From Escherichia phage DTL, in the sequence record MG050172: a DNA stretch of 45,814 nt; one strand, given 5' to 3'. Position numbers and translations under genes: made by a program. Each line of letters opens with the position of its first letter. The stretch's first letter is position 1. Shown one piece after another: positions 18,877 through 28,364 of the stretch. The notes beneath the pieces were generated by a model, which did not search any database, was not told the origin of the DNA, and was given only the letters and a program-made list of their open reading frames with translations.

Positions 18877-19818
18877 ATGGCCATTAAATTTGATGCAGAA
18901 CAAGCAAAAATCACCGCTCACCTAGAGCAAATTGGCGTAGAGAAAGCCGATGCCGCTGGTGTCTGGACTGTTAGCCAGCTTACCGCTGCTCTGAATCGTG
19001 CTTACGAAAAAGAATACGCAGAAAACTCTGTTGTTAACATCTTCCCTGTAACCAATGAAATTCCTGGTCATGCGAAGTATTTCGAATACCCAGAATTTGA
19101 TGGTGTTGGTATTGCTCAGATTATCGCCGATTACTCTGATGACCTGCCGCTGGTTGATGCTTTCATGACTGAGAAACAAGGTAAAGTGTTCCGTTTCGGT
19201 AACGCATTCCTGATCTCAACCGATGAAATCAAAGCCGGTGCCGCAACGGGTCAGTCTCTATCAACTCGCAAGCAGGCACTTGCATTCGAAGCGCACGACA
19301 ACCTGCTGGATAAACTGGTTTGGTCTGGCTCAGCTCCGCACGGTATCCCTAGCGTATTCGACCATCCGAACATCAACAACGTTGTTGCTGGTACGTGGAA
19401 CTCCGCAGCTGCTGCCATGACTGATATTACCTCACTTATTGATGCAATCGAGACTTCGACCAATGGCACTCACACCGCAACTGATATCTTGCTGCCTGCT
19501 TCCGCTCGCCGACTGATGCAAGAGCTGGTTCCTAACACCTCTATCAGTTACGCGCAGCTGTTCGCCACCAACAACTCGGGTATCAATCTGCGTTACCTTC
19601 AGTTCCTGGATAACTACGATGGCGCAGGTGGTAAGGCTGCTCTGGCGTTTGAGAAGGACCAATTAAATATGTCTATCGAGATCCCGGAGGTTACTAACGT
19701 ACTTCCGGCTCAACCGAAAGACCTGCATTTCCGATATCCTGTAACATCAAAAGCTACAGGTTTGATCGTTTATCGTCCACTGACGATGGCCGTAATGAAA
19801 GGTATTACTTTCAAGTAA
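18877..19818 (+). CDS. major capsid protein
   Basis: 313 aa, position in head module; preceded by TATAAT and followed by strong terminator. Confidence 0.65.
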   Translation: MAIKFDAEQAKITAHLEQIGVEKADAAGVWTVSQLTAALNRAYEKEYAENSVVNIFPVTNEIPGHAKYFEYPEFDGVGIAQIIADYSDDLPLVDAFMTEKQGKVFRFGNAFLISTDEIKAGAATGQSLSTRKQALAFEAHDNLLDKLVWSGSAPHGIPSVFDHPNINNVVAGTWNSAAAAMTDITSLIDAIETSTNGTHTATDILLPASARRLMQELVPNTSISYAQLFATNNSGINLRYLQFLDNYDGAGGKAALAFEKDQLNMSIEIPEVTNVLPAQPKDLHFRYPVTSKATGLIVYRPLTMAVMKGITFK

Positions 19819-21397: not shown

Positions 21398-21788
21398 ATT
21401 ATCATTAGCGGCAAGGAAATTCGTCAATGATTTACTGGTAAATGAATTTCCGGTCAGATATCCAGTTGCGTGGGAGAATGCTGCATTCACTCCTCCGGCG
21501 GATGGGTCAATCTGGCTTAAGTACGACTACACAGAAGCTGACACTGTAACCTACGGATTAAGCAGGAAGTGCAAATACTACGTAGGCATGGTGCAGATCT
21601 CTGTTTTCTTCAGCCCTGGAACTGGAATTGACAGGCCCAGACAAATCGCTAATAAATTGGCAGAATCTATCATTGATGGTACAATGCTTGACAGCGGGAC
21701 CATTTATGAGTCTGGATTTGTTAACCCCGTTATCAAATCTAAGTCTGGGTGGTTTATCCCGGTTCGTTTTTATGTTCGTCTAGACTAA
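21387..21788 (+). CDS. putative tail terminator protein
   Basis: 133-aa ORF just upstream of major tail gene. Confidence 0.35.
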   Translation: MQYELSLAARKFVNDLLVNEFPVRYPVAWENAAFTPPADGSIWLKYDYTEADTVTYGLSRKCKYYVGMVQISVFFSPGTGIDRPRQIANKLAESIIDGTMLDSGTIYESGFVNPVIKSKSGWFIPVRFYVRLD

Positions 21789-21815
21789 ATTAACTCATTT
21801 ATTTGGAGGTGTATT

Positions 21816-22472
21816 ATTGCTCATTTATCAAATGGCACGCAGGTCTTCGTAGAAGGCTCTCGCGGAGCTGCAATTAACGTAACTGCAATTTCTAACGCAG
21901 TTACCCCTGTTTTAACCGTAGCTGACGGCTCTGGTATTGAGGTTGGCAATCACCTCCTGTTTACCGCGTCTTCCTCTACACTGCTTGCTGACAAGCATGT
22001 CCGAGTTACCGCAGTTACTGGTACATCAATCACAGTTGAAGGTATCGATACTTCTAGTACAACAAAATTCCCGGAGGGGTTGACTGGTGAAGTGGTTAAG
22101 ATTCTTTCCTGGTTCGAGGTTCCATGCGTTCAAGATGTATCCACTGACGGCGGCGAGCAGCAGTTCGTTAGCTTCCAGTGCTTGTCAGATGACCGTGAGC
22201 AGCAGATTCCGACTTATAAATCTGCCGTAACAAACACGTTCACCTTTGCTCATGAGTACACCAACCCGGTTTATCCGGTTCTGCGTAACTACGATGAGTC
22301 AGGGCAGGTTGTCGCAATTCATCTGTATGTTCCACGCGCACAGGAGATGCGTTTGCAGTCCGGCACTATCGCTTTCAACGACACGCCAACCATTGGTGTT
22401 AACGAAATCGAAACGGTGTCCATCTCGGTATCCATTCGTGGTCGACTGTCATCTGTGGCAGCACCAGCTTAA
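21816..22472 (+). CDS. major tail protein (start codon uncertain, apparent ATT)
   Basis: Frame open from 21789 to 22472 with no ATG/GTG/TTG until 22080; strong RBS GGAGGT 5 nt upstream of ATT 21816. Confidence 0.5.
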   Translation: MAHLSNGTQVFVEGSRGAAINVTAISNAVTPVLTVADGSGIEVGNHLLFTASSSTLLADKHVRVTAVTGTSITVEGIDTSSTTKFPEGLTGEVVKILSWFEVPCVQDVSTDGGEQQFVSFQCLSDDREQQIPTYKSAVTNTFTFAHEYTNPVYPVLRNYDESGQVVAIHLYVPRAQEMRLQSGTIAFNDTPTIGVNEIETVSISVSIRGRLSSVAAPA

Positions 22473-22475
22473 AGA

Positions 22476-22500
22476 ACAAACCCTCTTCGGAGGGTTTTTT
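22476..22500 (+). terminator. rho-independent terminator
   Basis: CCCTC-TTCG-GAGGG followed by TTTTTTATT. Confidence 0.65.
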
Positions 22501-22582: not shown

Positions 22583-22831
22583 ATGAATAACGTTAAAAAC
22601 ATTATCAAGCTCGCTGCGGTTCTTGTTGCTTTTTATGCAGTAGTTCAGATTGTTAACCCAACTGGCGAGGCTGATGCCAATAGCAAGGCAAACAGATATA
22701 CTGTTGAATTTTCTAAGGCTGAGCTAGCATGTCAGGAACTTGTAGGTGGCAAAGTTGACCAAATCATGAAATACGGCAAAGAGGTTTGTAAGGACTCGGC
22801 TGCTAAGATTGCAAAAGAAAACACTAAGTAA
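22583..22831 (+). CDS. small secreted/membrane protein (moron-like insert in tail cluster)
   Basis: N-terminal hydrophobic segment; own promoter element and CATCGAAACGAAA leader upstream. Confidence 0.45.
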   Translation: MNNVKNIIKLAAVLVAFYAVVQIVNPTGEADANSKANRYTVEFSKAELACQELVGGKVDQIMKYGKEVCKDSAAKIAKENTK

Positions 22832-22869
22832 TAGAATACATACTCACAAACAATAAGAGGATTAACATA

Positions 22870-23184
22870 ATGGCAAAGTTCAAACTTTCACTGGCGGCAC
22901 TTCCTGACTTTAAGCTGCCGGTAAAATTCAAGCTGGCTAACGACCAGGATGTAGAGGTTATCTTTACGGTCAAGCACAAGAAAACATCTGAGTTGCAGGA
23001 ATTACTTAGCAAGGAAGATTTGAGCACAAAGGAACTTATCATGGCAATTGCTTCTGATTGGGATTTGGAGGAGGAATATAACGAAGATAACGTTAATGAG
23101 TTATCTGACCTTTTCCCAGCCTCAACCGTTGCACTGACTACCGCTTACATGCAAGCTTTAGCTGGTCAGCGAGTAAAAAACTAA
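22870..23184 (+). CDS. tail assembly chaperone (lambda G-like)
   Basis: 104-aa ORF between major tail and tape measure genes; ends in slippery A_AAA_AAC. Confidence 0.65.
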   Translation: MAKFKLSLAALPDFKLPVKFKLANDQDVEVIFTVKHKKTSELQELLSKEDLSTKELIMAIASDWDLEEEYNEDNVNELSDLFPASTVALTTAYMQALAGQRVKN

Positions 23185-23504
23185 AGAGGGCGGTGTATCT
23201 ACAGTACCAGTCAGACCCAACAGATGCCGAACTGGAAGCTATTGGGATGCGCCGCTCTGATTACGAAGATGAAGAGCCTGAGGTTTTACACTTCGACGAC
23301 AACATGATGAAGGCGTGGGACATTTATTGTTCAATGGCTACACAGTGGAGAGTCGGAGCTAACGGAGCTACAGGTTTAGATTACAACGTGCTAAACTTCC
23401 TCTTTAGAGTGTATAATGTTTCTGAAGAAGAATTGGTGCTCAGCGATTTACGCATCCTTGAAGCTAAGGCTCTAGAGATGATGGATAACCTGAGAAAAAA
23501 ATAA
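22870..23504 (+). CDS. tail assembly chaperone frameshift fusion (lambda G-T-like) by -1 slip at 23175..23181
   Basis: Heptamer AAAAAAC immediately before the G stop; -1 frame is open from the slip site through 23504. Confidence 0.55.
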
Positions 23505-23539
23505 CCCGCTTCGGCGGGTTTTCTATTATGGAGGCTTAG

Positions 23540-26515
23540 ATGGCAACAAATGAATTAGCCGGAATCACACTAGCCGTAGACGTCTCGCAAGTAGACAGTG
23601 GCACGCAATCCCTGCAAAAGTTCAGACAGGCTAACCAACAGGCCGCTTCCGGTATTGGTGAGTTCGTCAACGCTGAGCAGGTTGCTAAAAACCAGGCTAG
23701 AGATACCGCTCGCGCACTGGCTGAGCAACAGGCATCTTTAGCTAAGCTTCAAACGGCTATTGACCCGACGGCTGCAAAGTTCCGCAAACTCCAGGAGGCA
23801 GCGGTAGGTCTTGATAAGGCATTCGCAGCTGGAGTAGTTCCTGATGAGGAGTTTTTCCGATTAGGTGAAGCGCTTGAAACTCAAAACGCAAAACTTGCTC
23901 GTTCACGCGCGGCGCTAACTGAGGAAGGTAGAGCGGCAGCACAGGCTGCAAAGGATAAGGCAAAAGCAAAGGCTGAAGCGGATAGGTTCATTGCATCACT
24001 TGAGCGTCAGGCTCAGGCGGCAACATTGACGCGAGAGGAGTACATAAAGTTACAAGCGGCCCAGCTTGGCGTTAGCTCTCAGGCTGCACCCATCATTGAC
24101 AGAATCGCCGACGCATCACAGAAGGCAAACACCCAGTTAATTGCTCAGAGTAAGGCTTTTCAGAAATCAGGATTAAGCGCCGGGCAATACAAGAATGCTA
24201 TATCTCAACTGCCAGCGCAGATTACTGATATTGGCACATCGCTTGCTGGAGGCATTCCGATTTGGCTTATTGCAATTCAGCAAGGTGGGCAGATCAAGGA
24301 TGCATTTGGCGGTATTGGTAACACCTTTAGATTCGCGCTTGCAGCCTTAAACCCATTCAATGTAGCTGTTGGTGTTTTGGGTGGGGCACTTGTAGCTCTT
24401 GGTGTTGGCGCGGCTCAGGCTGAAAGTGAATTCAGGGCGTTAAACTCCGCAATTGCATTCTCCAACAACTCTACAATCGCATCAATCTCGCAGGTTAGGG
24501 AGTTGGTTAGCTCTGTTTCTGATGCAACAGGTGCCACCAGGGGGCTTGTGACTAGCATCGCAACAAGCCTTATTGAACAAGGTAACCTTACGCTGACGCA
24601 GATTGACAAGATTACTAAATCGACCGCAAGATGGGCGCAGTTGACAGGTAAGGATGCGAAGGAGATTACTGGTTACTATAACCAGATTGCGAGCGACCCA
24701 ATACAGGGATTGGTTGATTTGGATAAGCGCTTTAACTTCCTCACTAATGGTCAGTTGACGACGATCGAAAACCTGAGAAAGACAAAGGGAGAAGTTGAGG
24801 CAGTTACCGCTGCGATCGATATTTTCAGCAAGTCACAGGAAGCTAACCTTAACGACATAGCAGCTCAATTGACACCACTTGAATTGGCCTGGAATGATTT
24901 CAAAAAGTACATCTCTGATATCTGGGATGCAATTAGCCGTAGAACGGTTGGGGCGCTGAACCTGTTTGTTGACGTAATTGCCGGAACAATTGAGCAAATC
25001 AGGGTCTTCATTAACCAGGGTGATGTGCTGATTGGTGAATTCGTAATTAGCGCAACCCAAGCATTGCAGAGCATTCCTGGTCTTGATGGCGTTGGTGATG
25101 ATGTTATCAAGGGTCAGCAAAAGATTATCGATGCAGCTAAGAAACAAAACCTTGAGCTAGAAAAGTCTATCAGGGAGCGATATGCCAGAATCAGAGAGGG
25201 AGAACTTGGTTACGTTACTCGCAGAGAAAATCAGAATACCAACGAGCAATCAGGGACCGATGAGGAATTCGCAAAAAGGAGGAAGGCACTTCAGGATGAA
25301 CTTGATGCGATCAAGAAGAACAGGAAAGAAGAAAATGGTAGGGTTAAAGAGCAAAGAGACCTTACAATTGGTTACGAATCCGGCGTACTGGCACTTCAGG
25401 CTCAACTCAAGGTTCTTCAGGAAAATAGGGATATTGGCGCAGTAATAAGCAATGAGCGCAAACAGTATCTTCAGGAAGAGGCCAAATTCAGGATTCTTGA
25501 ACAGAGACAACTTGATGGCTCAATTACCAAAGAGCAGGCAAGACTTCTTCTTGAAAAGGACAAGATTCTTGAGTTAGCAAAGCAGAAGGCTGAACTAGGA
25601 GATCAGATTATTTTGCAGGAGCAAGCCAATAAGTTAGCTGAAGATAACCGCAAGAAGATTATTCAGATTAACAATGAAGCAAGTAACATCGACTTGGGTG
25701 CTGGGTTATCATCTCGTGAGCAGCAAAGGGCTAAGGAGATTCAGGCACTTCAATCCAATCAGGTTAATGCTGGTGGTTCTGTTGATGACGTAGACTTTCA
25801 ACAGCTACTGGAGGCGAGACGCAACTTTTACGCTCAGGAGGATGCGCTACGTGAAAACTGGCTCGCCGGCGTGAATCAATCCTTTGCCAATTGGGCTGAG
25901 AGCGCGACGGATGCATTCTCAATTGCTGGAAGTTTAACTACTACCGTCTTCGAGGGCATTACCGACCAGATTACCAACCTTGTAACCACTGGCGAGACTA
26001 ATTTCAGGGAGTTCACAGTTAGCATCCTTAAGCAGATAGCGAAGATTGCAACCCAGCTTCTTATTGTAAAGGCCATCGAGTCTAGCTTAAGTAGCTTTGG
26101 TGGTACTGGTGGCACTATTGGTTCAATTGCCTCTGGATTAGGTTTTGCTGGTGGCGGCTACACTGGGGATGGTGGAAAATATCAGCCAGCAGGCACGGTT
26201 CATCGTGGAGAGTTTGTATTCACAAAAGAAGCTACAAGCCGAATCGGTGTGAAAAACCTTTACGCGCTAATGAAAGGATATGCAAACGGCGGCGCGGTTG
26301 GTGGTCATTCCGGTTATGCAAATGGCGGTTTGGTTTCTGGTGGAACAGATGTTAATGTTAGTGGCATCACTGTTAACGTAAACTCCGGGGTTGGTAGCGA
26401 CCCAGAGCAAGCTAAGGCATTGCAAAGTGGAGTTAAGGCAATCGTAGCGGAAGAGATTGCTCAGTCTTTCCAGCAGGGTGGCCGTGCTTATGCTTACCTT
26501 CGCGGATTCAACTAA
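23540..26515 (+). CDS. tail tape measure protein
   Basis: 991 aa, Ala/Gln-rich coiled-coil N-half, TM-like central segment, Gly-rich C-terminus; canonical position. Confidence 0.85.
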
Positions 26516-26924: not shown

Positions 26925-27813
26925 TTGGAGAAAATCATGTTAAGTACAAAGTTTGAAAATCAGTTGCAAAGCCTTTTTCCTGGCGAGATTGTGACATTAA
27001 TCCAGGTTGACGGAACCTCTTTTGGCAGTCTCGTTTATTCGTTCCACAATGAGAACATTTCATACACACCTGAAGAGATCATGCTAGCCCAAATGAATGG
27101 CGAGCCACTACCAGAGAAAACCATCACCTTTCGTGGTGAAGAGTACGGGCCTCGCCCATTCGGTATCTCGGGCATTAATATGACCTCTGACGGAAAAGCC
27201 AACAAGGTTACACTAACAGTATCAAACGTAGACCAGCGCATTAGCGCATTGATTAGAACATACAACGGACTTGTTAAAGCTAAGGTTACCATATGGATTA
27301 CCACGAGAGATAACATCAATGAAGACGGAAGCATTGCTGATGGTGACTATCGCAGATTTGTTTACTTCATTGAGCGACCGAAGCAGGTTGATTACAAAAC
27401 TGCGTCATTTGAGCTTAGTAGCCCGATGGATATGGATGGCATTTACATCCCTGCCAGACTTGTTTGACTATCGCAGATTTGTTTACTTCATTGAGCGACC
27501 GAAGCAGGTTGATTACAAAACTGCGTCATTTGAGCTTAGTAGCCCGATGGATATGGATGGCATTTACATCCCTGCCAGACTTGTTCAATCGGTTTGCTAT
27601 TGGGCGTCCAGGGGCTGGTATCGTAGCGGTAATGGTTGCGGCTATGCTGGTAATAGATACTTCAACAAGGATGATGAGCCTGTGTCAGACCCCTCATTAG
27701 ACTTCTGCGCAGGAACTGTTAACAGTTGCAAAATTAGGTTTGGAGAGAATAATCAGCTGGACTTTGGTGGTTGCGCGGCAGCAAGTCTTCAGGCTAAAGC
27801 GAATCAATCATAG
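26925..27813 (+). pseudogene. minor tail protein (lambda L-like) frameshifted by a 121-bp tandem duplication
   Basis: Track ORFs 26925..27467 and 27271..27813 both encode DYRRFVYFIERPKQVDYKTASFELSSPMDMDGIYIPARLV in different frames. Confidence 0.6.
27344..27585 (+). repeat. perfect tandem direct duplication, 2 x 121 bp
   Basis: 27344..27464 and 27465..27585 identical base-for-base on hand comparison. Confidence 0.85.
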
Positions 27814-27866: not shown

Positions 27867-28364
27867 TTGGAGACAAAAATGAACTGGAATGAAATTTTCG
27901 AATACAGAGATGGCAAGATCTATTGGAAAGTTAGCCCTGGCAGGAGGGCTAAGGTTGGTTCGGAAGCTGGATCAAATCAAATAAAAGGGTATAGATTTGT
28001 GAAATTTCACGGAGTTTTATATATGACACACATGGTTATTTGGGAGATGCATAACTGTGAAATACCGCATGGAATGGAGGTTGACCATTTAAATCACATT
28101 AGGGACGATAACAGGATAGAGAATTTAAGAGTTGTTACAAAGTCAATTAATCAGAGGAATGCATCTAAAAGAATTGATAATAAAAGCGGTTTTACAGGCG
28201 TTTCTTGGTATCCCAAATATTCAAAGTGGAATGCTTACGCGACAGTAAATTCCAAGAGGTTTAATCTTGGTTACTTTGAATCAAAGCAAGATGCCTGTGT
28301 GGCTGTTAAAAAATTTAGGTCCATAAATTATTTTCATAAAAACCATGGAGTTGATTTATGTTAA
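27867..28364 (+). CDS. HNH homing endonuclease
   Basis: Motif HMVIWEMHNCEIPHGMEVDHLNHIRDDNRIENLR; inserted between L-like and K-like tail genes. Confidence 0.8.
   Translation: METKMNWNEIFEYRDGKIYWKVSPGRRAKVGSEAGSNQIKGYRFVKFHGVLYMTHMVIWEMHNCEIPHGMEVDHLNHIRDDNRIENLRVVTKSINQRNASKRIDNKSGFTGVSWYPKYSKWNAYATVNSKRFNLGYFESKQDACVAVKKFRSINYFHKNHGVDLC

Follow-up and report, generated by a model that had tools for sequence, protein, structure and literature searches.

Introduction

Between their major tail and tape-measure genes, long-tailed phages carry a conserved −1 frameshift that links the tail assembly chaperone products G and GT (Xu, Hendrix and Duda 2004), and the ratio of G to GT in phage lambda is roughly 30:1 (PMC5009743). 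In E. coli, the slippery heptamer A_AAA_AAC is far less shifty than A_AAA_AAG, and re-pairing from AAC to AAA is poorly tolerated (PMC5009743; PMC4066793). Shifting to the −1 frame at A_AAA_AAC has been proven in E. coli for one cluster of insertion sequences (IS), A_AAA_AAC_1, where the shift is of low efficiency and has no established stimulator (PMC4066793). Among T1-like phages, Citrobacter phage Stevie has the conserved frameshift according to its genome announcement (PMC4319613). Protein-level evidence of the frameshift was found in the literature searched neither for the phage studied here nor for any other T1-like phage.

Here we analyzed a 45,814-nucleotide stretch of DNA from Escherichia phage DTL (sequence record MG050172; hereafter the window), whose source is a T1-like coliphage (Drexlerviridae, Braunvirinae-like). 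A programmed −1 frameshift at the end of a tail chaperone gene had been proposed there from the letters of the sequence (the original prediction). We compared the locus with 15 representative phages and then with 155 further loci, comprising 80 viral contigs and 75 bacterial-genome loci, the latter being mostly prophages of Enterobacterales, Pseudomonas, Stenotrophomonas, and Burkholderiales. The sequence comparisons make it very probable that programmed −1 ribosomal frameshifting of the lambda G/GT type takes place at the locus. Coordinates are those of the window; the G and T frames, the signals at their junction, the major tail and tape-measure genes, and the terminator-like hairpin at the end of T are all on the + strand.

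Anatomy of the locus and the slippery site

The G-like tail assembly chaperone ORF (22870..23184; zero frame, 104 aa) starts at ATG 22870, with AAGAGG located 9 nt upstream, and its last zero-frame codons are CGA GTA AAA AAC TAA, so that the ORF and its GTA AAA AAC TAA ending are as originally described. The heptamer A_AAA_AAC was likewise confirmed at 23175..23181 in the canonical X_XXY_YYZ register, with AAA (Lys) in the P site and AAC (Asn) in the A site. The zero-frame stop UAA (23182..23184) is located directly 3′ of the heptamer, and its first two bases lie within the −1 Leu codon CUA. The −1 frame is open from 23109 to TAA 23502–23504, and no −1 stop codon was found between the slip site and 23193. 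The first codon after the slip is CTA at 23181, from which the −1 extension, the T domain (LKRAVYL...), runs for 107 codons (23181..23504). Thus, the −1 frame is open through 23504 as had been claimed, while the length of the predicted G-T fusion, previously given as about 210 aa, is corrected to 211 aa.

The bare string AAAAAAC is not enriched in the window (10 copies observed on both strands versus 14.1 expected), and heptamer enrichment was therefore set aside as evidence. The open segments of at least 80 codons in the window contain 60 in-frame X_XXY_YYZ heptamers, for which the median −1 open length is 8.5 codons. The heptamer at 23175 is the only one that combines direct contact with the zero-frame stop, a −1 frame open for more than 100 codons, and a place in a recognizable gene pair. 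An upstream SD-like stimulator, sought about 10 nt 5′ of the heptamer, is absent, since GCTGGTCAGCGAGT contains none of AGGA, GGAG, and GAGG. The T frame itself ends with AGA AAA AAA TAA (23493–23504), a second A-rich heptamer flush with a stop codon. This one is probably meaningless because its −1 frame is open for just 12 codons, into the terminator.

Gene families and gene order

G showed a match to Pfam Phage_TAC_4 (PF08748; E=1.4e-33, 116.2 bits, gathering threshold 21.1), with residues 1–104 covering profile positions 1–124 of 124, and to phrog_569 and phrog_17368. The −1 extension matched Pfam DUF1799 (PF08809; E=1.6e-15, 57.5 bits, gathering threshold 26), with fusion residues 125–205 aligned on profile positions 1–80 of 80, as well as phrog_17368 and phrog_680. 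phrog_17368, a profile of 213 positions, aligns with G over its first half and with T over its second (T on positions 109–210). Because this profile spans both halves, it suggests that fused products are already in databases. A PDB sequence search with the GT profile found no relative (best E=0.11).

The major tail (tube) protein gene (21816..22472; Phage_tail_3, E=8.4e-67) is located upstream of G, and the tape-measure protein gene (23540..26515; 991 aa; TMP_2, 4e-49; Tape_meas_lam_C, 4e-20) is located downstream of T. The gene order is major tail, an 82-aa ORF, G, T, and tape-measure, followed by M-, L-, and K-like genes. Gene families, synteny, and the conservation described below all bear out the claim of a G/GT-like frameshift between the major tail and tape-measure genes, with the correction that an extra ORF of 82 aa (22583..22831) is present between the major tail gene and G. 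This ORF encodes a hydrophobic N-terminal segment, matches phrog_22925 (unknown function), and has no match in Pfam; it is found in Braunvirinae relatives as a hypothetical protein.

An intrinsic-terminator-like GC hairpin with a T tract (23503..23520) overlaps the T stop ahead of the tape-measure gene. A second terminator-like GC hairpin with a T tract is located directly after the major tail gene (22478–22497), and the two bracket the chaperone unit G/T. Counterpart terminators are annotated in T1 (19508–19527) and EC3a. A scan of 22800–23600 against Rfam at E<=1 detected no known frameshift element, and the sub-threshold chance matches (rsmX and P9) were near the terminator.

Conservation of the slippery site among relatives

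The identity of the locus was 94% to Veterinaerplatzvirus T145P1 and 90–93% to many Escherichia phages. T is in the −1 frame in approximately 147 of the 155 related loci. The heptanucleotide preceding the G stop in this 155-locus set is AAAAAAC (91 loci), GGGAAAC (36), GGGAAAT (2), or AAAAAAA (1), and 5 more loci have AAAAAAC one codon earlier. A canonical heptamer flush with the G stop (TAA or TGA) was thus found in 130 of the approximately 147 loci having T in −1. T1, Tempevirinae, Webervirus F20, Kyungwonvirus, and Dhillonvirus all have the identical AAAAAAC with TAA right behind it, and Dhillonvirus keeps the heptamer and the stop at approximately 29% amino acid identity. The heptamer and stop are also kept in prophages from many Proteobacteria, with the heptamer alternating there with G_GGA_AAC.

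The residue just before the AAA or GGA codon varies among 10 amino acids across the loci, being V, A, E, L, T, S, Q, or K ahead of AAA and L, K, R, E, or V ahead of GGA. At the slip site, however, Lys is always encoded by AAA and Gly always by GGA, and AAA AAC or GGA AAC with a non-matching preceding base occurred in none of the loci of the unselected 155-locus tally. Since the residues change while the slippery pattern persists, it is the nucleotide pattern, and not the peptide, that is under selection. The flush position of the stop is partly a matter of dual coding, because a T-frame CUA or CUG followed by an A-initial codon reads UAA or UGA in the zero frame. The first T residue, Leu, is invariant (L105 in the protein alignment), the N-terminus of T is conserved as L-K/R-R-A-V-Y-L in Drexlerviridae, and protein conservation is continuous through the junction.

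Conservation of the terminal site in approximately 135 loci is not explicable by coincidence, and it is scarcely credible that the whole arrangement has no function or that the shift takes place at the other heptamer, T_TTC_CCA (23112..23118). The latter formally fits X_XXY_YYZ and is located where the −1 frame is open (from 23109), but it was seen in just one other lineage examined (SG01, as TTTCCCG), and the −1 frame of several relatives is not open upstream of the terminal site. Additionally, a shift at 23112 would replace the conserved C-terminus of G.

The conservation also bears on whether T could be a 103-aa protein of its own, produced with no frameshift by ribosomes that initiate, or terminate and reinitiate, at the GTG in the T frame (23193..23195). 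This GTG is located 9 nt past the G stop and 3 nt past GAGG (23186–23189), and with the SD-like GAGG(G) in the window it could yield some free T. An independent RBS for T was remarked on by the annotators of phage OzMSK, and many records annotate two separate CDS. However, the GTG start is limited to the Braunvirinae group, the SD spacing of 3 nt before it is poor, and the SD is weakened to CGAG in EC3a-type relatives. Outside this group, no ATG, GTG, or TTG is present within the first 17–67 codons of T; in T1, Tempevirinae, Webervirus, Rogunavirus, and Dhillonvirus, the first start-like codon appears 17–67 codons into T, although T is conserved from codon 1. Since these 17–67 codons lack a start and are nevertheless conserved, T cannot be an independent gene outside Braunvirinae. 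Separate production of T would also leave the persistence of X_XXA_AAC despite changing amino acids unexplained, and we consider it very unlikely as the sole explanation of the locus.

Transcriptional slippage, in which the A6 run (23175–23180) would gain one A from RNA polymerase and G and T would share one frame in the mRNA, would yield an identical K-K-L junction. The run differs by one A in a GenBank relative, phage 2725-N35, which indicates that it is prone to indels in replication or sequencing. Efficient slippage by bacterial RNA polymerase is known at runs of approximately 9 or more (summarised in PMC5009743), and A6 is shorter than these. Moreover, approximately 38 homologous loci carry G_GGA_AAC/T at the slip position, a site for ribosomal tandem slippage that is unable to support slippage by polymerase. 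Polymerase slippage needs neither C at position 7 of the heptamer nor a matching X base, yet both are conserved. On account of the short A6 run and of GGGAAAC in the homologues, transcriptional slippage is disfavored and is, in our estimation, extremely unlikely.

Some relatives keep the −1 architecture with no canonical heptamer. In Rogunavirus (L018 and L038–L043), G ends with GCA AAG GTC TAA, and in some Webervirus (L026 and L027) with GCA AAA GTT TAA; judging from these sequences, both lineages may shift on the shorter motifs A_AAG or A_AAA. In phage 2725-N35 (MN840485; L001, 3177–3225), the slip site has A5 instead of A6, and therefore the G ORF continues to 117 aa and T is in the +1 frame. 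This A5 is probably a homopolymer sequencing error. Similar frame anomalies were observed in IMG/VR contigs L037, L080, L097, L100, and L101 and in Enterobacter phage N5822, and the few loci in which T is found in the +1 or 0 frame have the appearance of assembly indels.

Predicted RNA structure downstream of the slippery site

A downstream stimulatory structure had been suggested as a target for RNA folding, and folding of the region 3′ of the site gave a predicted extended hairpin of 14 bp + 5 bp + 5 bp (72 nt; 23187..23258), which starts 5 nt past the heptamer. Over the 89 nt 3′ of the site, the MFE is −31.6 kcal/mol (z=−3.5), which places this segment within the most stable 0.34% of 6533 segments of equal length across the 45.8 kb. 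Braunvirinae relatives retain the extended hairpin, with z of −4.4 to −5.4. T1, Tempevirinae, and Dhillonvirus have instead a compact hairpin, GGCGGUU(N)AACCGCC, located 7 nt past the heptamer (z of −1.3 to −5.0). Since the extended hairpin is not conserved outside Braunvirinae, we regard it as lineage-specific. Among 59 non-redundant loci, the mean z directly 3′ of the site was −1.0 (50 nt) and −1.4 (90 nt), and the mean z further into T was −0.06 to −0.5.

RNAalifold on 15 diverse sequences predicted no pairs and hence no family-wide consensus structure. When the extended hairpin of the window was projected onto the 15-sequence alignment, 65% of the cells were paired compared to 63% in shuffles, and covariation was not significant. 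Within Braunvirinae, variation is confined to 7 of the 89 columns (3 of 56 paired and 4 of 33 unpaired), which is too few for covariation. For the compact T1-type hairpin, the observed pairing was reached by 0 of 500 shuffles and the covariation score by 6 of 500, figures that are confounded by sequence relatedness. The TTT/TCT and AAA/AAG changes inspected in this hairpin were not true compensatory partners. From these folding results, the extended hairpin is a reasonable but unproven candidate for a stimulator.

Proposed mechanism of frameshifting

Starting from the sequence anatomy, family memberships, and conservation, which were established directly here, we infer the fusion product, its ratio to G, the role of the hairpin, and, by analogy, the function in tail assembly. 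With programmed −1 ribosomal frameshifting, most ribosomes would stop at UAA 23182 and release the 104-aa G. In a small fraction of ribosomes, tRNA-Lys and tRNA-Asn on AAA AAC (23176–23181) would slip back by 1 nt and re-pair on A_AAA_A. By an alternative route, the P-site tRNA could slip while UAA occupies the A site. After the slip, decoding would resume at CUA 23181 and continue to 23504, producing the 211-aa G-T (...GQRVK-N/K-LKRAVYL...). Tandem slippage would leave Asn at the junction (...MQALAGQRVKNLKRAVY), and slippage in the P site before A-site decoding would give ...RVKKLKRAVY.

By analogy with lambda GT, whose roles are taken from Xu et al. (2004, 2013, 2014) as far as they are summarised in PMC5009743, the G part may bind the tape-measure protein and the T part may recruit the major tail protein. 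The weakly slippery AAC in the A site would set a low and fixed GT:G ratio, which the hairpin 5 nt downstream possibly tunes. The efficiency of the frameshift is expected to be low because A_AAA_AAC is weakly shifty in E. coli, and a weak slip site would fit the lambda G:GT ratio given above.

We also put forward, tentatively and with more doubt than confidence, that the Phage_TAC_4/DUF1799 family shares a fixed cassette consisting of X_XXA_AAC flush with the stop, an AAC codon in the A site, and 3′ hairpins that evolved in each lineage and tune the ratio. In such a cassette, UAA or UGA would double as the T-frame Leu codon CUA or CUG, and AAC would be used even in E. coli phages. The hairpin would be the 72-nt extended form in Braunvirinae and the compact GGCGGUU...AACCGCC in T1, Tempevirinae, and Dhillonvirus. 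If this were true, the hairpin and the adjacent stop would be real stimulators, and the family would provide a natural series for how low-level −1 frameshifting is set in bacteria.

Other features of the window

For the major tail gene, no ATG, GTG, or TTG is available from the in-frame stop at 21786 up to TTG 22080. Its start is most likely ATT 21816, located 6 nt past GGAGG; most relatives have ATG at this position. AUU is an unusual start for the most abundant tail protein. Phages MM01 (MK373793) and RobRod40 (OR896835) have the GGAGGTGTATTATTGC arrangement in common with the window (21805–21818), and their annotators picked an upstream TTG, which is absent from the window. In RobRod40 (OR896835; L186, 248–733), an HNH endonuclease gene is inserted precisely at the boundary of the tail terminator and major tail genes, bordered by the variant intergenic sequence common to the window (21786–21815) and MM01. 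A link is possible between homing-endonuclease traffic and this variant junction with the ATT start. Further downstream in the window, an HNH_3 endonuclease ORF (27867–28364; 165 aa, E=4e-19) separates the tail L gene from the K gene (Prok-JAB + NlpC/P60).

The minor tail L gene (Phage_tail_L) contains a perfect 121-nt tandem duplication (27344–27464 and 27465–27585; 100% identical). Because 121 is 3×40+1, the frame of the L gene is broken into the ORFs 26925..27467 and 27271..27813. EC3a, OzMSK, and FP cover the 551-nt duplication query in 430 nt, indicating that they have a single copy. Either the duplication is very recent and disruptive, or it is an artefact of assembly.

Comparison with known systems

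The sequence comparisons support a match of this locus to the conserved tail-assembly-chaperone G/GT frameshift of Xu, Hendrix and Duda (2004), which is already known. In both this locus and lambda G/GT, two ORFs overlap in the interval from the major tail gene to the tape-measure gene, the first has a canonical heptamer for a −1 shift close to its end, the second lacks a conserved start, and the fusion is expected at a low level. The locus differs from lambda in its heptamer, which is A_AAA_AAC rather than G_GGA_AAG and is flush with the stop, and in the stable hairpin predicted after the site in this lineage. The proteins, members of Phage_TAC_4 and DUF1799, probably belong to other Pfam families than lambda gpG and gpT.

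The orthologous locus of vB_ecoS_OzMSK (PQ659294; XLM52744/XLM52745), with approximately 91% nucleotide identity, has the identical GTAAAAAACTAAAGAGGGCGGTG junction and carries a joined (ribosomal slippage) CDS for G/T. A joined CDS is also annotated for the orthologous genes of Klebsiella phage Skenny (MK931444; QEG07221/QEG07222). Skenny differs in having GCA AAA GTT TAA and no canonical heptamer, and it presumably shifts on a shorter A-run. In many GenBank relatives, G and T appear as a pair of hypothetical proteins or under the wrong name of tape-measure protein. The annotation of the window should join G and T into one ribosomal-slippage CDS, 22870..23181 + 23181..23504.

Outside the tail chaperones, the IS cluster A_AAA_AAC_1 mentioned above, which we take to be the IS1 insA-insB′ frameshift, shares with the phage site the heptamer A_AAA_AAC and the host translation apparatus. 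This IS1-type site differs from the phage site in that it serves a transposase, has no flush stop codon, and shows no homology. E. coli dnaX (gamma/tau), for which the efficiency of the frameshift is roughly 50%, shares an A-rich heptamer, tRNA-Lys in the P site, and a downstream hairpin at approximately 5–6 nt, which is predicted here. In contrast, dnaX has A_AAA_AAG with the highly shifty A-site codon AAG and an upstream SD, whereas the phage site has AAC and no upstream SD-like 4-mer.

For biology, this locus is one more instance of a well-established rule and leaves the current understanding unchanged. What is modestly new is at the family level, namely the near-invariant X_XXA_AAC-plus-stop across T1-like phages and proteobacterial prophages, and a region just 3′ of the site that has more structure than the remainder of T and hairpins specific to each lineage. 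The X_XXA_AAC-stop signature and these hairpins could guide experiments on frameshift efficiency.
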